Part shown: piece by piece, positions 27,587 through 51,233 of the stretch | Layout: every line of letters begins with the position of its first letter | How positions within the stretch are numbered: the first letter of the stretch is position 1 | NCBI GenBank assembly: GCA_018456245.1 | Contig: JAGYHQ010000001.1 | Location: 134,693 to 198,692, forward strand | Length of the DNA: 64,000 nucleotides | Source: Tenacibaculum sp. | Lineage (GTDB): Bacteria; Bacteroidota; Bacteroidia; Flavobacteriales; Flavobacteriaceae | Reading direction: 5' to 3' | Program-made: the position numbers and the translations under genes | The notes under the pieces: model-generated | What the model saw: only the letters and a program-made list of their open reading frames with translations | Databases searched by the model: none | Told to the model about the DNA's origin: nothing

Positions 27587-27671
27587 GCGTTACTTTAATA
27601 ATTTACACAAATTAAAAAAACTCTTAAAACATCTAAGAATTCCTCTTAAAATTTGTCCTTATTTTTACTTG

Positions 27672-27744
27672 CACGGGTTGAGAGACTCGAACTCCCGACA
27701 CCTGGTTTTGGAGACCAGTGCTCTACCAACTGAGCTAAACCCGT
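27672..27744 (-). tRNA. tRNA-Trp(CCA)
   Basis: Cloverleaf with acceptor ACGGGTT/AACCCGT, anticodon stem-loop ctggt-ctCCAaa-accag, and TTCGA T-loop. Confidence 0.97.
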
Positions 27745-27749
27745 ATCAC

Positions 27750-27783
27750 AAAAGTATTCCGACATAAAAATCGGAATACTTTT
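27750..27783 (-). terminator. Hairpin/terminator after tuf
   Basis: aaaagtattccga / tcggaatactttt inverted repeat between tuf and tRNA-Trp. Confidence 0.6.
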
Positions 27784-27804
27784 AATATATAATTAAACTT
27801 AATA

Positions 27805-28992
27805 TTAGTCTAAAATTTCAGTTACCTGACCAGCTCCTACTGTACGTCCTCCTTCACGGATTGCGAACTGTAAACCAATATTTAATGCGATTGGCTGGAT
27901 TAAGTCAACAGTAATAGTTAAGTTATCACCTGGCATTACCATATCTACTCCGTCAGGTAAATTAATAGTACCTGTTACGTCAGTTGTACGTACGTAGAAC
28001 TGTGGACGGTAGTTTTTGTGGAATGGCGTGTGACGACCACCTTCTTCTTTTTTCAAGATATAAACCTCAGCTTTAAACTTAGCGTGTGGAGTAATTGAAC
28101 CTGGTTTACAGATTACCATACCTCTCTTGATATCAGTTTTTTCAATACCTCTTAATAAGATACCTGCGTTATCTCCAGCCTCACCTCTATCTAAGATTTG
28201 ACGGAACATTTCAATACCTGTTACAGTAGAAGTTAATTTTTCTTCTCCCATACCAATAATTTCAACAGGATCTCCAGTATTAACAATACCTGTCTCGATA
28301 CGTCCAGTTGCTACTGTACCACGACCTGTAATTGAGAATACATCCTCGATAGGCATTAAGAATGGCTTTTCAGTATCACGTGGTGGCTCTTCAATCCAAG
28401 TATCAACAGCTTTCATTAATTCTAAAACTGTATCAACCCATTTTTGCTCTCCGTTTAAAGCTCCTAAAGCAGAACCAGCAATTACAGGACCATTATCCCC
28501 ATCATACTCATAGAAAGATAATAAATCTCTAACCTCCATTTCTACTAACTCTAATAATTCCTCATCATCTACCATATCAACTTTGTTTAAGAAAACAACG
28601 ATACGAGGAATACCTACCTGACGTCCTAATAAGATGTGCTCACGAGTTTGTGGCATTGGACCATCAGTTGCAGCTACTACTAAAATAGCTCCATCCATTT
28701 GAGCCGCACCAGTTACCATGTTCTTTACATAATCCGCGTGACCTGGACAGTCAACGTGTGCATAGTGACGGTTTTCAGTAGCGTACTCAATATGAGAAGA
28801 GTTAATTGTAATACCTCTTTCTTTTTCCTCTGGAGCATTATCAATTTGATCAAAATCTCTCTTTTCAGAAAAACCTGCATCAGCTAATACTTTACTAATT
28901 GCAGCTGTTAAAGTTGTTTTACCGTGATCTACGTGTCCGATTGTACCAACGTTTAAGTGTGGTTTCGAACGGTCAAAAGTTCCTTTTGCCAT
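27805..28992 (-). CDS. tuf: Elongation factor Tu
   Basis: [14 protein letters not shown] and RGITIN motifs; 395 aa. Confidence 0.99.
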
Positions 28993-29065
28993 GATTATTA
29001 ATTTTAATTCTTTTTAGTTAAATATATTTAGTGTTATTTTAATTTTATGACCCCCACTACTATAG

Positions 29066-29138
29066 AGCCAATGACGGGATTTGAACCCGTGACCTCATCC
29101 CTACCAAGGATGCGCTCTACCAACTGAGCTACACCGGC
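29066..29138 (-). tRNA. tRNA-Thr(GGT)
   Basis: Acceptor GCCGGTG/CATTGGC and anticodon arm catcc-ttGGTag-ggatg. Confidence 0.96.
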
Positions 29139-29191
29139 CTAATTAGGTCATAAGGTAAATAAAGCTAAATATACTTAGCTTTATTATTTTG

Positions 29192-29264
29192 AGCGGGAGA
29201 CCGGGTTCGAACCGGCGACATTCAGCTTGGAAGGCTGACGCTCTACCAACTGAGCTACTCCCGC
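29192..29264 (-). tRNA. tRNA-Gly(TCC)
   Basis: Acceptor GCGGGAG/CTCCCGC, anticodon TCC, TTCGA T-loop. Confidence 0.97.
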
Positions 29265-29299
29265 TTTTTATTTTAGAAAATTCTAAAACATCATTATTG

Positions 29300-29382
29300 T
29301 GGGGAGAGCAGGATTCGAACCTGCGAAGTCGAAAGACAACGGAGTTACAGTCCGTCCCATTTGGCCGCTCTGGAATCTCCCC
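29300..29382 (-). tRNA. tRNA-Tyr(GTA)
   Basis: Acceptor GGGGAGA/TCTCCCC, anticodon arm acgga-ctGTAac-tccgt, long variable arm. Confidence 0.97.
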
Positions 29383-29427
29383 TATTTTTTTATTACAGTA
29401 CTTAAAAAGAACTTTATTTTCTCTTAG

Positions 29428-29501
29428 AGCCGATGGAGGGACTCGAACCCACGACCTGCTGATTACAAATCAGCTGCTCTAGCCAGCTGAGCTACATCGG
29501 C
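29428..29501 (-). tRNA. tRNA-Thr(TGT)
   Basis: Acceptor GCCGATG/CATCGGC and anticodon arm gctga-ttTGTaa-tcagc. Confidence 0.96.
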
Positions 29502-46282: not shown

Positions 46283-48739
46283 ATGATTCAGGATTTGGAA
46301 ACAGCTAAAAATACAGAACAACTTTCTTTTAATGATTTTAAAAACGAAGTTTTAAACGATTACCGAATAGGTAGAATTAGTCGTGAATGTAGTTTATTAG
46401 GAAGACGTGAAGTATTAACAGGTAAAGCCAAATTCGGAATTTTTGGAGACGGAAAAGAATTACCACAATTAGCAATGGCGAAAGCTTTTAAAAATGGCGA
46501 TTGGAGGTCGGGTTACTATCGTGACCAAACTTTTATGATGGCAATTGGCGAGTTATCTGCTCAACAATTTTTTGCAGGGTTATATGCTCATACTGATATA
46601 AACGCCGAGCCAATGTCGGCAGGGCGACAAATGGGAGGGCATTTTGCCACACATTCATTAGATGAAAATGGTAATTGGAAAAACCTCACTGAACAAAAAA
46701 ATTCATCGGCAGATATTTCCCCAACCGCTGGGCAAATGCCTCGTTTATTGGGTTTAGCACAAGCCTCTAAAATTTACAGAAATTTAAACGATTTAAAAGA
46801 ACGTAGCAATTTTTCTAATAACGGAAATGAAGTTGCTTGGGGAACAATTGGTAATGCAAGTACATCAGAAGGGTTATTTTTTGAAACCATAAACGCTGGT
46901 GGTGTTTTACAAGTTCCTATGATTATTAGTGTTTGGGACGATGAATATGGGATTTCAGTTCACGCAAAACATCAAACTACTAAAGAAAATATTTCTGAAG
47001 TTTTAAAAGGTTTCCAACGAGAAAAAGGAACAAACGGATACGAAATTTTTACCGTTAATGGTTGGGATTATGCCAAATTAGTTGATGTTTTTAGTAAAGC
47101 ATCTAACATTGCAAGAGAGCAACACGTACCTATATTAATTCACGTAAAAGAGCTTACGCAACCTTTAGGACACTCTACTTCAGGCTCTCACGAAAGATAC
47201 AAAACAGAAGAGCGATTAAATTGGGAAAAAGAATTTGATTGTTTAGCTCAATTCAGAAAATGGATTTTAGAATTTGAATTAAAAGACGAAAACGGAAATA
47301 TTCTAAAATTTGTAGAGAACGAAGAAGAATTAATCAATTTAGAAAAAACGGCTAAAAAGGAAGTTTCCATTGCTAAACAAAATGCTTGGAAAGCGTATCA
47401 AGATGATATAAAAACTGAACTAAATGAAGCCATTTCTATTTTAGAACGGGTTATTGTTAATAGTGACAATGGCTTATTTATAAAAAAACTAAAAACCGAT
47501 TTAGTTTCAAAAAAAGAAATAATCCGTAAAGATATTTTATTAACCTGTCGTAAAAGTTTACGATATTTAGTTAATGAAGATTTTTCAGAAAAAACAGAAT
47601 TAATAAACTTTATTAACATTAAATTAAAGAGTGCTTATGAAAAATATTCAACTCATTTAATTTCTGAAAACTCTCAATCGCCTTTAAAAATAGAGGAAAA
47701 ACCTGCAATTTATAGTAAAGATAAAAATTTAGTAGACGGAAGAATTATTTTAAGAGATAATTTTGAGGTTATTTTAGCCAAACACCCTGAGGTTTTAATA
47801 TTTGGGGAAGATGCAGGGTTTATAGGAGATGTTAACCAAGGATTAGAAGGCTTACAAAATAAATTTGGAGAATTACGTGTTGCCGATACAGGAATTAGAG
47901 AAGCCACTATTTTAGGGCAAGGTATTGGTATGGCTATGCGAGGGTTACGCCCTATTGCTGAAATTCAGTATTTAGATTATTTGCTATACGCCTTACAAAT
48001 TATAAGTGATGATTTAGCAACATTACGTTACCGTACTTTTGGAAAACAAAAAGCTCCTTTAATTATAAGAACTCGTGGTCATCGTTTAGAAGGAGTTTGG
48101 CACGCAGGCTCGCCAATGGCAGGAATAATAAATAATGTTCGTGGAATACACGTTTTAGTTCCAAGAAATATGACAAAAGCCTCAGGTTTTTACAACACCT
48201 TATTAGAAGGAGATGACCCTGCTTTAGTTATAGAATGCCTAAATGGATATCGTTTAAAAGAAGAATTACCTACTAATTTAGGAGAATTTAAAACTCCAAT
48301 AGGTGTAGTTGAAACCATTAAAGAAGGAAAAGATATTACCATTGTTTCTTATGGCTCTACCCTACGTTTAGTTGAAGAAGCATCTAAAGAATTAGCACAG
48401 GTAAATATTGATGTAGAAATTATAGACATACAAAGTTTATTACCTTTTGATATTAATAATGACACCGTAAAATCTTTACAAAAAACCAATCGTTTATTAA
48501 TTGTAGATGAAGATGTACCAGGGGGAGCATCAGCATATTTATTACAGAATATTTTGGAAAACCAAAACGGTTATAAATATTTGGATAGCAAACCACAAAC
48601 CTTAACATCAAAACCACACAGACCTGCTTATGCTACTGATGGAGATTATTTCTCAAAACCATCAGTTGAAGATATTTTTGAAAAGGTTTACGAAATTATG
48701 CACGAAGCAAACCCTAATAAATATAAGAAACTGTATTAA
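46283..48739 (+). CDS. 2-oxoacid (probably branched-chain) dehydrogenase E1, fused alpha/beta subunits
   Basis: TPP-enzyme features: GYYRD, GNASTSEG...DDEYGIS, GHSTS, FGED, DTGIREATI, AEIQY and IVDED. Confidence 0.9.
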   Translation: MIQDLETAKNTEQLSFNDFKNEVLNDYRIGRISRECSLLGRREVLTGKAKFGIFGDGKELPQLAMAKAFKNGDWRSGYYRDQTFMMAIGELSAQQFFAGLYAHTDINAEPMSAGRQMGGHFATHSLDENGNWKNLTEQKNSSADISPTAGQMPRLLGLAQASKIYRNLNDLKERSNFSNNGNEVAWGTIGNASTSEGLFFETINAGGVLQVPMIISVWDDEYGISVHAKHQTTKENISEVLKGFQREKGTNGYEIFTVNGWDYAKLVDVFSKASNIAREQHVPILIHVKELTQPLGHSTSGSHERYKTEERLNWEKEFDCLAQFRKWILEFELKDENGNILKFVENEEELINLEKTAKKEVSIAKQNAWKAYQDDIKTELNEAISILERVIVNSDNGLFIKKLKTDLVSKKEIIRKDILLTCRKSLRYLVNEDFSEKTELINFINIKLKSAYEKYSTHLISENSQSPLKIEEKPAIYSKDKNLVDGRIILRDNFEVILAKHPEVLIFGEDAGFIGDVNQGLEGLQNKFGELRVADTGIREATILGQGIGMAMRGLRPIAEIQYLDYLLYALQIISDDLATLRYRTFGKQKAPLIIRTRGHRLEGVWHAGSPMAGIINNVRGIHVLVPRNMTKASGFYNTLLEGDDPALVIECLNGYRLKEELPTNLGEFKTPIGVVETIKEGKDITIVSYGSTLRLVEEASKELAQVNIDVEIIDIQSLLPFDINNDTVKSLQKTNRLLIVDEDVPGGASAYLLQNILENQNGYKYLDSKPQTLTSKPHRPAYATDGDYFSKPSVEDIFEKVYEIMHEANPNKYKKLY

Positions 48740-49167
48740 TGGAGCAGGAAACAGATTTTATTTTAAAAGAAATAAAAAAGATAACCTATTTTCTATCTAA
48801 ATTAATTAGTAATATTAGCACATCAAATAATTTTGAAATAGAAAATATAATTAATGAAACCGATGAATTTCTTAAAGAAAAATGGAAATTATCTTTTAAT
48901 GAAATTACAACTTTAAATGAAATTGATTTTTTAAATAAATTAGAAAATTTACCTGAAATTCATCTTGATAAATTTGTAGAATTATTAAGTGAAATAATAA
49001 ATAAACTTAAAACTTCTGAATTACAAAACAAATACAACAAAAATGAATTAGCTAATAAAACTATTGTTTTAATTGATAAAATAAATAAAAATTCAAAAGA
49101 TCTTTCATTAAAACGAATGCAAATTAAAAATAACTTACAACAGGAAGTTCATAATATTTTTAACTAA
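48739..49167 (+). CDS. Hypothetical helical protein
   Basis: 142-aa ORF whose ATG overlaps the E1 stop codon (TAATG). Confidence 0.6.
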   Translation: MEQETDFILKEIKKITYFLSKLISNISTSNNFEIENIINETDEFLKEKWKLSFNEITTLNEIDFLNKLENLPEIHLDKFVELLSEIINKLKTSELQNKYNKNELANKTIVLIDKINKNSKDLSLKRMQIKNNLQQEVHNIFN

Positions 49168-49198
49168 AAATTAATATTATACGTAATAATTATTTTTA

Positions 49199-49206
49199 TA
49201 CATTTG
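49199..49206 (+). promoter_or_regulatory. -7 element (TACATTTG) for the Cys-rich module
   Basis: TAnnTTTG match 18 nt upstream of ATG 49225; it contains the TTG used by the ORF track. Confidence 0.6.
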
Positions 49207-49224
49207 TATATTACATTTTGTTAT

Positions 49225-49578
49225 ATGAAGTTTACAATTAAAACATTTTTTATAATTATTTTAAGTTTAGGTATTTTATTACCTCAAACTTATGCTTCTA
49301 ATTACAAAATAAAATCAACTATCACTGAAACAACAATGTCTTGTTGTGATGTAGATTCAGAAGAATCTTGTAATTGTTCAACAGATTGCAATATGTATAA
49401 CAAAACATGTAATACAAATTGTTGTTGTTCTAATTTATTGTACCTAAACCAAGAAGTTTCTTTTTGTAAGTTATTATTTTTTGATGTTCATTCAAAATTA
49501 ATAAATACTTACAATAACAGATATAATTATTTATTTCATTCTAATATTTATAAACCTCCAATTAATTTTTTATCCTAA
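49225..49578 (+). CDS. Cys-rich exported/membrane-anchored protein with C-terminal IYKPP motif (candidate metal-sensing arrest leader)
   Basis: 117 aa from ATG 49225: hydrophobic signal, 10 Cys (CC..CNC..C..C..CCC..C), aromatic-rich linker, ending IYKPPINFLS. Confidence 0.7.
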   Translation: MKFTIKTFFIIILSLGILLPQTYASNYKIKSTITETTMSCCDVDSEESCNCSTDCNMYNKTCNTNCCCSNLLYLNQEVSFCKLLFFDVHSKLINTYNNRYNYLFHSNIYKPPINFLS

Positions 49579-49626
49579 AAATGAAAAAATTAACGAAAAT
49601 AGATTTATAAATTAAAAACAATAAAG

Positions 49627-49923
49627 ATGAAAAAAATAATTTTAATATTATCAATAGCCTTGGGAACATTAGCTTATGGCTCTACATCAGTACAAAAAAC
49701 AGAAATAAAATGTGAATGTAAAACAACAGGAGTTTGCACTTGTGAAGAAACTTGTGAGTGTGATTCTTGTAAACATGAAAAATGTAAATGTACTGAAAGT
49801 GAAAAATGTACTTGCAAAGGAAAGTGTAAATGCAGTACTTCAAATTCAAAAAAATGTAATTGTGATGATACAAAAAATTGTACTTGTAAAGATGTTTGTA
49901 AGTGCGGTTCTTGTAAAAAATAA
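49627..49923 (+). CDS. Secreted metallothionein-like protein (20 Cys, three 24-aa repeats)
   Basis: Sec-type signal MKKIILILSIALGTLAYG. Residues 29-96 carry 20 Cys in CxC and CxCxxC motifs, are Lys-rich and contain no aromatic residues. Followed by a terminator. Confidence 0.8.
   Translation: MKKIILILSIALGTLAYGSTSVQKTEIKCECKTTGVCTCEETCECDSCKHEKCKCTESEKCTCKGKCKCSTSNSKKCNCDDTKNCTCKDVCKCGSCKK
49711..49914 (+). repeat. Three tandem 72-nt (24-aa) coding repeats, units starting at 49711, 49783 and 49855
   Basis: CECKTTGVCTCEETCECDSC / CKCTESEKCTCKGKCKCSTS / CNCDDTKNCTCKDVCKCGSC. Confidence 0.85.
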
Positions 49924-49941: not shown

Positions 49942-49969
49942 AAAGAGGTTCAATATGAACCTCTTTTTT
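49942..49969. terminator. Intrinsic terminator after the metallothionein-like gene (probably bidirectional)
   Basis: aaagaggttc-aatat-gaacctcttt followed by a T tract. Confidence 0.85.
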
Positions 49970-51233
49970 ATTTAATTTTATTGGTAACGGTACAATGTAA
50001 ACAATTTTTATCATTACAATGTTCATTCTTCAACTCAAGTAATGCCTGAGTTTCAAAAGCATTTTTTGCTTCTATTTTTAAATTTGAAAATTTTGAAATA
50101 ATTGAATTCTTTTCAGGTTTTAATTCTTTCATTAAGTTTAAAATTTCATCTTTATTAAACTTACCTCTACTGTATTCATATACATATTTTAAAGGTATTA
50201 TTGTGTTTATAATTAGCAAATCAATAAATGATTTTGTAAGTTTTTTTGATGATTTTTTTGATTCCTTGGTAAACGTATAATGGTTTTTCCAAAAATCATT
50301 CACTTTAATATTTAACAAAGAATAAAAAGATGTAATATCTTTTACTGATAGTATTTTTGAAAATAAATTATGATGTATATGATACAATGAAACCAACTGA
50401 GCAATCCTAATTGTAGGGAAATTATTCGGTCTCATTCTAAAAAATTGAAAATTATTATTATCAATTGGCGTTAATTTATACTTGTGTTGTAAATATTTAT
50501 ACTCACTTTTTAAGTGCAAAAAATATTCACCTTCAATATTTTCTGATAAAAATCCTGCTTGCCCAAACATTAATGCTGATAATATATCTTCATTAAACCA
50601 TTCTTTTCTAACAATTGAAAAATCAACCGACTCTGCTAAACTTAAAAAAGTCTCACCGTTAACTTTTAATCCAAAATTTTTGGCTAATAATTGAAATAAT
50701 ACAGCCTCAAAATCATTATTTGATTTATTTAACAACTCTTTAATTAAAACCGATTTGTTTTCCAATCTTTGAAAGTACAAACGTTCTAACACATTTTGTG
50801 TTATATAATTATTCTTTATTTCGGTAATTTGTTTTTCACATAAAATCCATTTTAATTGCTCCGAATAATTTTTATTATAATTCTCTAAAATATTTTTATC
50901 AATACAATTTTTAATTTCTAATGTTGGCAATGGTTTGTTATTTTTCATAAAAACCTCTGTATCATTTTCATATACAACGTGTAGAATTACGGTATCATAA
51001 TTTTTATCGGTTTCGTGATTATGGGTGTACCAATTAGAAGATTTTAAATGAATTTCAATATTTCCTACCCAAATTTGTCCGTCTATTTTTAATTTGGCAT
51101 TTAAAAAATCTGTACCTGTGTTTGTGTTATACGTACCTGTTTCTAAAATTATTACCTCTTCGTTATCAGCTGTTTTTAATTCAGTAGAAAACAATTTATA
51201 CTGCCATACATAATGTAAAAAATCTTCTTTCAT
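49968..51233 (-). CDS. DUF2851 family protein
   Basis: MKEDFLHYVW, WVGNIEIH, HETDKNYD.VILHVV, RMRPNNFPTIRIAQL and a C-terminal CxxxxCxxC. Confidence 0.85.
   Translation of the reverse strand: MKEDFLHYVWQYKLFSTELKTADNEEVIILETGTYNTNTGTDFLNAKLKIDGQIWVGNIEIHLKSSNWYTHNHETDKNYDTVILHVVYENDTEVFMKNNKPLPTLEIKNCIDKNILENYNKNYSEQLKWILCEKQITEIKNNYITQNVLERLYFQRLENKSVLIKELLNKSNNDFEAVLFQLLAKNFGLKVNGETFLSLAESVDFSIVRKEWFNEDILSALMFGQAGFLSENIEGEYFLHLKSEYKYLQHKYKLTPIDNNNFQFFRMRPNNFPTIRIAQLVSLYHIHHNLFSKILSVKDITSFYSLLNIKVNDFWKNHYTFTKESKKSSKKLTKSFIDLLIINTIIPLKYVYEYSRGKFNKDEILNLMKELKPEKNSIISKFSNLKIEAKNAFETQALLELKNEHCNDKNCLHCTVTNKIK

Follow-up and report, generated by a model that had tools for sequence, protein, structure and literature searches.

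Only one or two proteins, CutF and CruR of proteobacteria, have been shown to sense a ligand across the membrane while still nascent and half-exported. Many CutF-like ORFs in Bacteroidota were counted in a published survey, yet none of these has been studied. We analyzed a stretch of 64,000 nucleotides from Tenacibaculum sp. (the window) that contains a small Cys-rich ORF, here called X, ending in a Pro-Pro motif near its stop codon and followed by a second small Cys-rich gene, Y. A first-pass annotation suggested X as a putative ribosome-arrest sensor. Is X such a sensor, or is it a protein made for its own sake?

A conserved Cys-rich protein that ends in KPP

The 117-aa translation of X bears out the layout first read from the letters, in which a signal segment and a Cys cluster are followed by a spacer that leads to HSNIYKPP (Table 1). 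By inspection, residues 1-24, MKFTIKTFFIIILSLGILLPQTYA, read as a Sec signal peptide of n/h/c layout: the n-region is rich in K, the hydrophobic core spans 12 residues, and the cleavage region, P-Q-T-Y-A, is of the TYA/S type. All full-length homologues have a comparable N-terminus. Cys residues occupy positions 40, 41, 49, 51, 55, 62, 66, 67 and 68, and an additional, non-conserved one is at position 81. HSNIYKPP closes at P111-P112 (codons 49555-49560) and is followed by INFLS and TAA, which places KPP five residues from the stop, as annotated. The spacer, previously put at about 35 aa, amounts to 41 residues (C68 to K110).

Table 1. Features of the X-Y locus, with positions in the window
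Feature	Position	Strand	Basis
Gene X, predicted exported Cys-rich leader protein, 117 aa	49225..49578	+	ORF, homologues, alignments A1/A2, selection analysis
X residues 1-24, predicted Sec signal peptide	49225..49296	+	inspection
X residues 39-68, Cys cluster S-C-C...C-x-C...C...C-x3-C-C-C, with CxxxC at 62-66	49339..49428	+	alignments A1/A2
X residues 69-95, variable-sequence part of the spacer (27 residues)	49429..49509	+	low conservation
X residues 96-113, block Y-x3-Y-x-Y-L-F-x5-K-P-P-I, proposed arrest module	49510..49563	+	invariant residues, selection, family Z
Gene Y, predicted secreted metallothionein-like peptide, 98 aa	49627..49923	+	ORF, composition
TACATTTG, match to TAnnTTTG, 21 nt upstream of the ATG of X	49196..49203	+	read from sequence
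Bidirectional intrinsic terminator, 11-bp stem, T-runs on both strands	49942..49966	.	terminator scan
Tail codons past PP (N-F-L-S), proposed as the 5' arm of a helix that includes the start of Y	49564..49574	+	alignment A5
Y translation-initiation region including ATG 49627-49629, proposed 3' arm	49619..49629	+	alignment A5

X is a real gene under selection, and its layout goes well beyond what is expected by chance. A DNA pattern for Y-x3-Y-x-Y-x-F-x5-KPPI matches once in the window and not at all in 100 shuffles. Both conservation and the pN/pS pattern exclude a spurious ORF. TTG 49204 is an unlikely start, given that a promoter-like element overlaps this codon and a homologue begins at the ATG. 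A C-terminal sorting signal also fits poorly: KPPI is followed by 1-6 residues, with no transmembrane segment or basic tail.

Family X is rare and unnamed, with about 18 distinct sequences of 99-150 aa, mostly from uncultured, low-GC Flavobacteriales. The relatives of X have 12 representatives among 1.84 billion clusters. Loci of this family, and of a second family (Z) discussed below, were collected with a hand-made degenerate DNA pattern; about 10/24 and 13/27 of the pattern matches were chance occurrences outside ORFs and were discarded. A scan of genome contigs with the single X protein as query gave no matches.

Overall identity within the family is 27-43%, with no variation in the Cys motifs, in KPP or at four aromatic positions. 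In alignments A1 and A2, C40, C41, C62, Y96, Y100, Y102, F104, K110, P111 and P112 are invariant. Within the Cys cluster, S39, C51 and C66 also count as invariant, and S39-C40-C41 and C62-x3-C66-C-C as a whole vary little or not at all. The annotation regarded a lack of PP conservation in homologues as fatal to its idea. PP is kept in 18 of 18 members, 3-12 residues from the C-terminal end, so this objection falls away. The residue before KPP is [YDFH], and no member has Arg-Ala ahead of PP. The tail past PP is exactly 5 residues long in 14 of the 18 members. Between the last Cys of the cluster and the K of KPP, 16/18 members have 41 intervening residues, and the other two have 42 and 43; the length of the spacer is fixed (41-43) while its sequence drifts.

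In comparison to an 81%-identical homologue (L001), the overall evolution of X resembles that of neighboring genes. Residues 96-117 exhibit 5 synonymous and 0 non-synonymous differences (pS = 0.43, pN = 0), while pN is roughly 0.10-0.18 in the rest of X and 0.12-0.14 in the neighboring genes. The C-terminal 22 residues are under selection purely at the amino-acid level.

These data bear on the possibility that X is a stable protein after export, either periplasmic or membrane-anchored, whose many Cys bind metal or serve in thiol redox and which acts in trans with Y, e.g., as its metallochaperone or by helping it to fold or to be loaded. In that case, the Y...YxYLF...KPPI sequence would have a role in structure or interaction. 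We consider this rather unlikely. The 8 or more conserved Cys, spread over several motifs, are more than would be required of a minimal sensor and are in keeping with a protein that stably binds metal, and the fixed Cys-KPP spacing is equally expected of a folded domain. The absence of RAPP and PPP from X agrees with this alternative as well. However, the 27-residue spacer is poorly conserved in comparison to the frozen last 22 residues. Moreover, AlphaFold2 predicts no fold for X (pLDDT 46, pTM 0.19) and models only helix 2-18, the signal segment, with confidence; this is weak evidence, and the low confidence is uninformative on its own because the alignment held only 10 sequences.

X and Y form an obligate two-gene unit

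In the window, Y consists of a signal peptide and three CxCx5CxCx3CxC(xxC) modules with 20 Cys in all. Its orthologues, found downstream of X in every lineage, are single-module peptides of 46-52 aa with 7 Cys of CxC type and a Sec signal. Given its Sec signal peptide, Y would act outside the cytoplasm. It may bind metal, given its similarity to metallothioneins (PF00131, bacterial SmtA/MymT types), which is confined to composition and CxC spacing: these likewise have 20-30% Cys as CxC/CxxC, a mature part lacking aromatic residues, and modular duplication. Unlike them, Y carries a Sec signal peptide and has no significant HMM or PDB match. Pfam Metallothio (PF00131) is its sole family match, with E = 0.44 and 11.1 bits, short of the cut-off of 23, and PDB sequence searches that used Y or the X profile as query gave nothing meaningful. 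No family rose above threshold when X, Y and more than 20 homologues were scanned against Pfam and NCBIfam.

The start of Y lies 48 nt past the stop codon of X in the window. Across all loci, which represent at least 5 unrelated genomic neighborhoods, X and Y have the same order and are spaced by 28-69 nt, and the flanking genes are unrelated between lineages. When look-ups began from Y, X was upstream in 4/4 cases. The X-Y pairing is obligate, and the operon architecture is held in every lineage.

TAnnTTTG is the consensus of the Bacteroidota -7 promoter element. Elements of this kind, or resembling TAAATTG, occur 5-35 nt upstream of X at most homologous loci, and a promoter motif is absent from the X-Y spacer in 13/13 loci. 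The terminator downstream of Y closes both the X-Y unit and a convergent DUF2851 gene; the scan found 2 terminators, where 0.1 are expected. A GC-rich hairpin with a T-run follows Y in 13/13 homologous loci. X and Y are read as a self-contained bicistronic unit that runs from a putative promoter through X, some 48 nt of spacer and Y to a terminator.

The exceptionless co-occurrence of X and Y suits a pair of proteins acting together as well as it suits a leader and its target. It could also be imagined that X-Y is a secreted antimicrobial or signaling peptide system unrelated to metals, with Y of bacteriocin or defensin type and X as an immunity, maturation or export accessory. Y is short, Cys-rich and predicted to be Sec-exported, and the cassette is small, patchy and located in different neighborhoods, like accessory cassettes, with two copies in one MAG. 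However, Y is metallothionein-like in its odd number of Cys (7), its CxC/CxxC motifs, its abundant Lys, Ser and Thr and its lack of an aromatic or hydrophobic core. The tandem modules that expand the window's Y to 20 Cys are also metallothionein-like rather than bacteriocin-like, and X shares CxxxC and the C-terminal block with leaders of operons that are copper-receptor-like and MbnP/MbnH-like (see below). We therefore view an antimicrobial system as very improbable.

A second leader family in a copper context

Family Z is a second leader family, found in Flavobacteriaceae, that has CxxxC and a C-terminal block in common with X. An hhalign comparison of X and Z gave a probability of 93.5% and E = 2.4e-7, although the C-terminal likeness is by construction, the search that led to Z having used the C-terminal pattern. 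In this alignment, the CxxxC of X is matched with a C-[DN]-G-K-C motif of family Z. The best matches of the genes downstream of family Z are a TonB-dependent copper receptor (TIGR01778-like), MbnP and MbnH. By this alignment, X is related to the copper-context leader family. If X were a stable protein acting in trans, it would be odd to find its C-terminal block in a family that heads copper-uptake-type operons, a position typical of CruR-like regulators.

A variant of the sensor idea is that X monitors the thiol-oxidation capacity of the periplasm. Disulfides would pull the chain and release the pause, whereas failed oxidation would prolong the pause and induce Y. Disulfide formation is already the releasing force in the current model of CutF, many Cys of X would be exposed during the proposed pause, and Y itself is a Cys-rich exported substrate. 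On the other hand, redox genes are not linked to the cassette in most loci, and the kinship with copper-context leaders points to metal. We judge redox sensing by X to be improbable. Sensing of redox state and of metal are not mutually exclusive, because metal could act by blocking oxidation.

A candidate RNA helix between the X tail and the Y start

A leader that controls Y would need a way to convey its pause to the downstream gene. Bacteroidota largely lack Shine-Dalgarno-led initiation, so masking would need to involve the start codon directly. In alignment A5, the X tail and the Y start region pair in 80% of cells, vs. 42-49% when the partner is slid, a control that is inflated because one of the aligned sequences served to define the helix. 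Four pairs are changed on both sides. The covariation score is 0.169, vs. 0.088 in shuffles, and 0/500 shuffles reach it. The window forms 7/11 of the pairs, and locus L039 forms 4/11. In most lineages, the duplex of the tail with the translation-initiation region exceeds the locus background (background fractions 0.002-0.09), but L001 and L003 exhibit no excess complementarity between these two regions. AT-rich codons and A-rich start regions are complementary through composition alone.

A stable stem-loop that hides the Y start is unsupported. RNAalifold found no consensus structure, and the Y start region has average accessibility, being no more structured than the starts of other genes, which agrees with the stable-protein alternative. 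In the minimum-free-energy fold of the window, the Y start region pairs instead with X codons 101-105 (49525-49540; -12.6 kcal/mol, z = -1.83). Only the specific tail-to-start helix shows some signal, with modest covariation, and it is thermodynamically weak and AU-rich. The data thus argue only weakly for an mRNA switch that couples a pause to downstream expression.

Proposed mechanism and its significance

We think it somewhat probable that X is the Bacteroidota version of the copper-sensing, ribosome-stalling leader peptides of CutF/CruR type. We propose that X is most likely produced not as an end in itself, but as a cis-acting sensor peptide that is exported co-translationally. We infer its export, a pause at KPP, the nature of the ligand, the way in which regulation runs, the RNA switch and metal binding by Y, which would fit together as follows.

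The signal peptide of X would bring the nascent chain to the Sec translocon. When the ribosome arrives at K110-P111-P112, the block Y96-x3-Y-x-Y-L-F-x5-KPP would fill the exit tunnel and slow peptide-bond formation. The 41-residue spacer would then set CxxxC-CC at or in the translocon, with S-C-C and C-x-C in the periplasm. The length of the pause would be set by the thiols of X, either by a bound thiophilic metal, for which copper is the best guess, or by folding or oxidation. A ribosome held on PP would cover the five tail codons, which in most lineages are complementary to the Y start-codon region; a long pause would therefore keep the start site of Y open. Y, a secreted metallothionein-like peptide, would then be made and would buffer periplasmic metal.

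For the arrest-sensor idea as first annotated, all comparative predictions that could be tested agree. Against it, YKPP is not RAPP or PPP, the HMMs of DUF2946 and HYC_CC_PP miss X, and the RNA switch is weak.

A broader reading, which we offer tentatively and regard as possible rather than probable, is that Bacteroidota have an arrest module of their own, Y-x3-Y-x-Y-x-F-x5-K-P-P-I, that is unrelated in sequence to the RAPP, PPP and SecM types. The module might be attached to different Cys sensor heads, with X controlling an inducible periplasmic metallothionein cassette and Z controlling copper-uptake operons (TonB receptor, MbnP/MbnH). In each case, the paused ribosome would uncover the next start codon, which would otherwise pair with the five post-PP codons.

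Neither the YKPP-block motif nor a metallothionein-like target is described in the published work considered here. If the proposal is correct, the two genes are a compact test system of about 750 bp for such sensors, in a phylum with unusual translation initiation. They would also provide a new arrest sequence for studies of the ribosome tunnel, and the arrest module and sensor head would be exchangeable parts. Y would be a candidate secreted bacterial metallothionein, a barely known class of protein, and would be relevant to trace-metal handling in abundant marine Flavobacteriales.

Comparison with known systems

The arrest peptides SecM, VemP, MifM and RQH have an N-terminal export signal, as is predicted for X, and share with X a variable spacer and a conserved C-terminal block of about 17 residues that ends in Pro and is followed by a short tail (PMC10987492). 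They also control the next gene on the same mRNA, as is proposed for X (Fujiwara et al. 2024, PMC10987492). However, they sense export force rather than a ligand and precede secA, secDF or yidC, whereas X precedes Y in every locus. The idea that X is a Sec-monitoring substrate is rejected because its downstream gene is wrong for this role. The motifs reported for Bacteroidota in that study (Fujiwara et al. 2024, PMC10987492) are NSP-stop and NAP-stop, in contrast to the KPP of X.

Two uncharacterized families, HYC_CC_PP (NF047658) and DUF6769 (PF20558), are similar in length to X, with profiles of 130-131 positions, and the NCBIfam name of the former points to Cys and PP motifs, as in X. One homologue of X for each profile gives a sub-threshold match, which is collinear. 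The annotation had proposed an HMM search against DUF2946 and Cys/PP leader families, but the window's X was not recognized by these models. With HYC_CC_PP, it has no match, and the best family member (P0008) reaches 17.2 bits (E = 0.0054; cut-off 28). With DUF6769, only P0011 matches, at 17.4 bits (E = 0.0068; gathering cut-off 27). The window's X and at least 20 other members lack a match to HYC_CC_PP or DUF6769 at E <= 10. For DUF2946 (PF11162), there is no match at E <= 10 for 13 members of alignment A1 and 10 further proteins, nor at E <= 1 for the window's X and 8 further members.

CutF-like ORFs have been defined by rules: they encode fewer than 150 aa, with a signal peptide and with PP among the last 15 residues, and are followed by a gene on the same strand (Ozturk et al. 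2023, PMC9973294). X has 117 aa, PP 5 residues from its stop, Y 48 nt downstream and Cys motifs. Its N-terminus fits a signal peptide by inspection, and AlphaFold2 places a helix at 2-18. Judged from its sequence, X probably falls within the published operational definition.

CutF itself, from Rhodobacter capsulatus, arrests at a C-terminal PPP, which has been demonstrated experimentally, and its spacing of 45 residues is argued to put the Cys motif in the SecY vestibule (PMC9973294; 10.1101/2025.02.05.636593). Like X, CutF has fewer than 150 aa and few residues between PP and the stop, and it has a Sec signal peptide, as is predicted for X. Its CxxxC is located in the mature part, about 45 residues ahead of Pro-Pro, and in X the distance from C66 to P111 is also 45 positions. 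Both are encoded by the first gene of their unit, with a spacer below 100 nt and a downstream exported protein that is plausibly involved in metal handling, and in both, RNA pairing may conceal the start of the gene downstream. They differ in that CutF has PPP with nearby basic residues and 4 conserved Cys, while X has YKPP after a Tyr/Phe-rich block and 8 or more conserved Cys. The target of CutF is the multicopper oxidase CutO, and that of X would be a metallothionein-like peptide of 51-98 aa. X also stands apart in having hosts in Bacteroidota, in going undetected by the DUF2946 HMM and in the weak, AU-rich make-up of its candidate helix.

CruR (Bp2923 of Bordetella pertussis, DUF2946) has a spacing of 45 +/- 2 residues, which is needed for regulation (Roy et al. 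2022, PMC9426467). Like X, CruR is encoded by an upstream ORF, has a Cys motif and carries a C-terminal XXPP 3-5 residues from the stop; its export signal also has a predicted counterpart in X. In both, the spacing between the motifs is kept within 1-2 residues, although the value for X is 2-4 residues shorter. CruR is defined by CXXC and RAPP, whereas X carries CxxxC/CC(C) and YKPP. Most PP or RAPP-like motifs that have been tested do not stall ribosomes. CruR acts through Rho-dependent termination over a 162-nt spacer, with arrest relieved by copper, whereas the X-Y spacer is 28-69 nt (PMC9426467).

The characterized relatives with an X-type architecture are degraded after export and act in cis only, which argues against a stable X that works in trans. 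The fixed distance between Cys and KPP despite the drift of the spacer parallels the spacing of about 45 residues in CruR and CutF. Moreover, TonB copper receptors and MbnP/MbnH types are also found downstream of cruR homologues; like these homologues, the sister family Z occurs upstream of TIGR01778-like TonB receptors and MbnP/MbnH-like genes.

X as a probable leader-type protein

With moderate confidence, we regard X, a Cys-rich and putatively exported protein of 117 residues, as a Bacteroidota variant of the CutF/CruR class. X would be exported co-translationally with its Cys residues acting as a sensor, and its C-terminal Y...YxYLF...KPP block would pause the ribosome and so set expression of the downstream gene Y in cis. 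The layout proposed in the first-pass annotation, namely a signal segment, a Cys cluster, a spacer and IYKPP five residues before the stop, matches the ORF translation exactly. The sole numerical correction concerns the spacer, which was put at about 35 amino acids; counted from C68 to K110, it has 41. The relevant features are collected in the table; the window is AT-rich (29% G+C).

Features of the X–Y region, elsewhere in the window and in loci of family Z (positions refer to the window unless a locus handle is given)
Feature	Position	Strand	Remark
Five tRNA genes (Trp, Thr, Gly, Tyr, Thr)	27671-29501	-	clustered
142-aa ORF	48739-49167	+	immediately 5′ of X
Gene X	49225-49578	+	117 residues
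Signal-peptide-shaped segment MKFTIKTFFIIILSLGILLPQTYA	N-terminus of X	+	judged by inspection
Cys cluster of X	S39-C40-C41 ... C49-N-C51 ... C55 ... C62-NTN-C66-C67-C68	+	ORF translation
Spacer of X, Asn/Tyr/Phe/Leu-rich	after Cys cluster	+	ORF translation
HSNIYK110-P111-P112	PP codons 49555-49560	+	ORF translation
Tail of X, INFLS (5 residues), then TAA	C-terminal end	+	ORF translation
Mini-ORF MKKLTKIDL-stop, nine codons	49581-49610	+	2 nt past X stop, within X–Y spacer
Gene Y	49627-49923	+	next downstream of X
Bidirectional terminator	49942-49966		perfect 11-bp hairpin, T-runs on both strands; between Y and DUF2851 gene
DUF2851 gene	49968-51233	-	convergent with Y
Z locus	L014 5341-5394	-
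Z locus	L035 3716-3769	+
Further Z loci	L013, L017, L019, L020, L022, L024, L027, L032, L034, L054, L057, L059, L062

A longer reading of X from a TTG at 49204 is unlikely, as the closest homologue begins at the equivalent ATG, and it is also disfavoured by the promoter-like TACATTTG that abuts the TTG. GTG or TTG is the apparent start of many X homologues (loci L009, L043, L048, L064, L065 and L067), only 8-12 nt past a TAAATTG/TAnnTTTG-like element, which implies that the 5′ leaders of such homologues may be very short or absent. Several homologues were shortened to an internal Met by gene callers.

Conservation and geometry of X

A word-indexed protein search gave one close relative of X, locus L001, with 81% identity on a syntenic contig; X is thus about as conserved as its neighbour genes (71-92%). 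By region (Nei-Gojobori), the same pair has 5 synonymous and 0 non-synonymous differences in residues 96-117 (pS 0.43, pN 0), and pN is 0.10-0.18 in the signal, linker, Cys and spacer regions. Because residues 96-117 differ synonymously only, the amino-acid sequence of the C-terminus, and not merely its RNA, is strongly constrained.

Searched exhaustively with HMMER, 1.84 billion cluster representatives yielded 12 relatives (E <= 0.001), all of 99-127 aa, and family X has 18 distinct sequences once profile and DNA-pattern searches are added. Where named, the sources are Flavobacteriales bacterium MAGs or marine metagenomes, with a G+C content of 24-35%. Overall identity to the X in the window is merely 27-43%. 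Alignments show S39, C40, C41, C51, C62 and C66, along with Y96, Y100, Y102, F104 and K110, to be invariant or nearly so. The same is true of P111 and P112, and the first-pass idea of a pause at this PP, for which lack of conservation in homologues was named as a refutation, thus stands on this point. X is a real gene under selection.

The distance from the last cluster Cys to the Lys of KPP is exactly 41 residues in 16 of the 18 family members (42 and 43 in the remaining two), and the 27 residues following the Cys cluster are among the least conserved of X in sequence. The tail after PP has five residues in 14 of the 18 (range 3-12). If the P-site tRNA carries P111, the peptidyl-transferase centre is 43-45 residues away from C66-C68 and about 70 away from S-C-C. 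Ozturk et al. assign about 30 residues to the exit tunnel and about 17 to the membrane crossing (PMC9973294). Judged from lengths only, the CxxxC-CC motif would be in or at the translocon during a pause, and the upstream Cys motifs beyond it.

AlphaFold2, applied to X with 10 admissible homologues, gave a mean pLDDT of 46 and a pTM of 0.19, and the signal-peptide helix alone is confident. Sequence searches found no PDB relative of X or Y. The low model confidence, coming from a shallow alignment, leaves room for a fold and is merely compatible with a peptide that would act while nascent. In the main rival reading, X would instead be a stable Cys protein that is exported and works with Y in trans; we consider this unlikely, although it is the leading alternative.

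Gene Y and the X–Y unit

Every X locus has a short same-strand ORF, Y, that begins 28-69 nt downstream and is often missed by gene callers. Y consists of a Sec-type signal peptide (MKKYI...VYG), about 8-10 polar residues and the motif C-x-C-x5-C-x-C-x3-C-x-C-x2-C with 7 invariant Cys, for a total of 46-52 aa. This single module occurs in all lineages other than the window and L001, whose Y proteins have three tandem modules (Cys 29-48, 53-69 and 77-96, with 7+6+7 Cys) in 98 or 96 aa with 20 Cys. The triple-module form appears to be a recent expansion that raises capacity.

A profile search with Y found 11 clusters only, all unnamed. In a reverse test, X was directly upstream of Y in all four of the looked-up Y clusters that were not earlier tied to X. 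The genes flanking X–Y are entirely different from lineage to lineage: a Na+/H+ exchanger and LplA in one, an M20 peptidase and PfkB in another, OsmC and a PKD-repeat giant protein in a third, SASA and a glycosyltransferase in a fourth, and DUF2851 in the window. A GC-rich hairpin with a T-run lies 3′ of Y in 13/13 loci, and in the window this hairpin is the bidirectional terminator at 49942-49966. TAnnTTTG or TAAATTG-like elements occur just 5′ of X, and a search of the X–Y spacers found TAnnTTTG in none. X–Y therefore behaves as a self-sufficient unit, with a promoter before X and a terminator after Y.

Two diverged X–Y cassettes with differing neighbourhoods (L009/L016 and L010/L033) are present in one Flavobacteriales bacterium MAG, GCA_038154685.1. 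One of them adjoins an OsmC gene and has a gene for a multicopper oxidase (Cu-oxidase domains) about 2 kb upstream. These findings suggest that the cassette has been duplicated or is mobile.

Some other elements were seen in the window. The mini-ORF in the X–Y spacer is probably fortuitous, because L001, the close homologue, lacks it. The ATG of the 142-aa ORF upstream of X overlaps the stop of an 818-aa dehydrogenase-like gene. This ORF is syntenic in L001 (71% identity), is unlinked to X in other lineages and has no family match. Apart from the tRNA genes, no further Rfam family was found anywhere in the window.

Because of its composition, its CxC/CxxC spacing and the multiplication of its module, Y is most simply read as a secreted metallothionein-like metal buffer. 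Y has no significant match among HMM family models. That X–Y is instead a non-metal secreted-peptide system is a minor rival, which we consider highly improbable.

A second family with the same C-terminal block

We scanned GTDB species genomes and metagenome contigs with a DNA pattern for Y-x3-Y-x-Y-x-F-x5-K-P-P-I, dropping the roughly ten or more chance matches per scan that lay outside ORFs. The scan recovers family X and a second family, Z, in Flagellimonas/Allomuricauda, Algibacter, Winogradskyella, Lacinutrix and Olleya. Z proteins have a hydrophobic N-terminus, the motif Y-C-x-N-K-[DE]-x-P-x-L-x-C-[DNE]-G-K-C-[HM]-L and a spacer of at least 63 residues, longer than that of X. They end in the same Y-x3-Y-x-Y-x-F-x5-KPPI, followed by one residue before the stop. 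No Pfam or NCBIfam model matches Z.

A profile-profile comparison of X and Z gave 93.5% probability (E = 2.4e-7, 71 columns), and the alignment covers the C-terminal block, CxxxC (C62-C66 of X with C27-C31 of Z) and an upstream Cys. Since the search pattern itself led to Z, the C-terminal likeness is in part built in. The alignment of the Cys motif, the fact that the block is terminal and the role of Z in its genomic setting do not depend on that pattern. The sequences give a picture of one C-terminal module of about 17 residues that would serve two sensor heads and two kinds of target gene. Modular use of this kind is what one would expect if the block were an arrest sequence acting in the tunnel. 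The SecM block FxxxxWIxxxxGIRAGP likewise has 17 residues.

Z is directly followed by either of two gene sets. One is a TonB-dependent receptor of 703 aa that scores best with TIGR01778, the model for the TonB-dependent copper receptor (249 bits, below the equivalog cut-off). The other consists of an MbnP-like lipoprotein, an MbnH-like di-haem enzyme and an outer-membrane barrel. The same neighbour types were reported for cruR homologues (PMC9426467). Copper is our best guess for the ligand of X, because of these neighbours and the CutF/CruR precedents, and by analogy with CutF the metal would induce Y. X may instead sense another thiophilic metal or the thiol-redox state. A redox-sensing version of the arrest model, a minor rival that overlaps our main model, appears improbable.

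Possible coupling of X to Y in the mRNA

For the favoured reading, in which a pause on X sets Y in cis, tests for an mRNA switch were mixed. Two results speak against a stable switch. RNAalifold found no consensus structure over 12 diverse segments spanning the X 3′ end, the spacer and the Y 5′ end. The Y start region is also unremarkable in accessibility: its ensemble unpaired fraction is 0.54 in the window (rank 28 of 40 genes) and 0.34-0.80 elsewhere, the background being 0.48 +/- 0.13.

In favour of a specific helix, single-locus folds repeatedly pair the post-PP codons (e.g. CAUUUUAUUUC, coding H/N-F-I-S) with GAAAUAAAAUG, which is the Y start codon and the bases upstream. In most lineages, this duplex beats same-length windows from elsewhere in the locus. 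The share of the background that equals or exceeds it is 0.002-0.004 in L006, L009 and L010, 0.017-0.043 in five loci, 0.086 in the window, 0.22 in L003 and 0.60 in L001; AU-rich codons and A-rich start regions are complementary through composition. For a named 11-bp helix, defined from one member of an alignment of mutually related sequences, 80% of cells pair, compared with 42-49% after a shift of the partner by 1-3 columns. Both sides change in four pairs, a result reached by 5/500 shuffles, and the covariation score is 0.169 versus 0.088 in shuffles (0/500 reach it).

The two arms of the helix enclose a loop of about 54 nt. The window forms just 7 of the 11 pairs, and in the minimum-free-energy fold the Y AUG pairs instead with codons 101-105 (-12.6 kcal/mol, z = -1.83). 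With P111 in the P site, the 5′ arm lies at +9 to +19, mostly within the mRNA channel of the paused ribosome. If the helix is real, this placement suits the model, and masking of the arm by the ribosome would also explain the conserved five-codon tail. As the link from pause to Y, the helix is suggestive only; Rho-dependent termination, as for CruR, and termination-reinitiation coupling are alternatives.

Comparison with known systems

In Bordetella pertussis, the upstream ORF CruR (Bp2923, DUF2946) mediates copper control of a downstream TonB-dependent transporter through CXXC and a C-terminal RAPP three residues before its end; the spacing of 45 residues is kept within 1-2 residues and is functionally required (PMC9426467). 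CutF of Rhodobacter capsulatus combines a Sec signal peptide with CxxxC and, 45 residues later, a proline-rich motif, and is exported co-translationally and then degraded. Copper on its exposed motif prolongs a stall, which melts a stem-loop hiding the cutO ribosome-binding site (PMC9973294). The stall is reported to be at PPP inside the tunnel, with an interplay with EF-P and disulfide formation (2025 preprint, 10.1101/2025.02.05.636593). The proline motif of X is KPP, whereas that of CruR is RAPP and that of CutF PPP, and 41 residues separate the last cluster Cys of X from KPP, compared with 45 in both CruR and CutF.

Arrest peptides upstream of sec and yidC genes were catalogued by Fujiwara et al. 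in 2024. The Bacteroidota-specific motifs in that catalogue are NSP-stop and NAP-stop, KPP not being among them, and RAPP-like motifs of ordinary proteins mostly do not stall ribosomes (PMC10987492). The HMM search against DUF2946 that the first-pass annotation proposed gave no match for any member of family X. HYC_CC_PP (NF047658; best 17.2 bits, cut-off 28) and DUF6769 (PF20558; best 17.4 bits, cut-off 27) each scored below cut-off and with one member only. At the sequence level, X is a member of none of these three families.

Ozturk et al. class a protein as CutF-like if it is shorter than 150 aa, has PP among its last 15 residues, carries a signal peptide at its N-terminus and precedes a gene on the same strand. 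The authors counted 5,334, with Bacteroidota contributing 19% (40% normalised), varied Cys/His motifs and mostly metal-related neighbours (PMC9973294). X has every one of these features, its signal peptide being judged by inspection. The class is known, and its Bacteroidota members have so far been counted without study. Relative to the CutF/CruR-class literature, family X appears to be new, though it may be among the published CutF-like proteins. The KPP-type C-terminal block common to X and the copper-context family Z, the strictly kept 41-residue ruler and the obligate pairing of X with a secreted metallothionein-like micro-gene likewise appear new relative to that literature.
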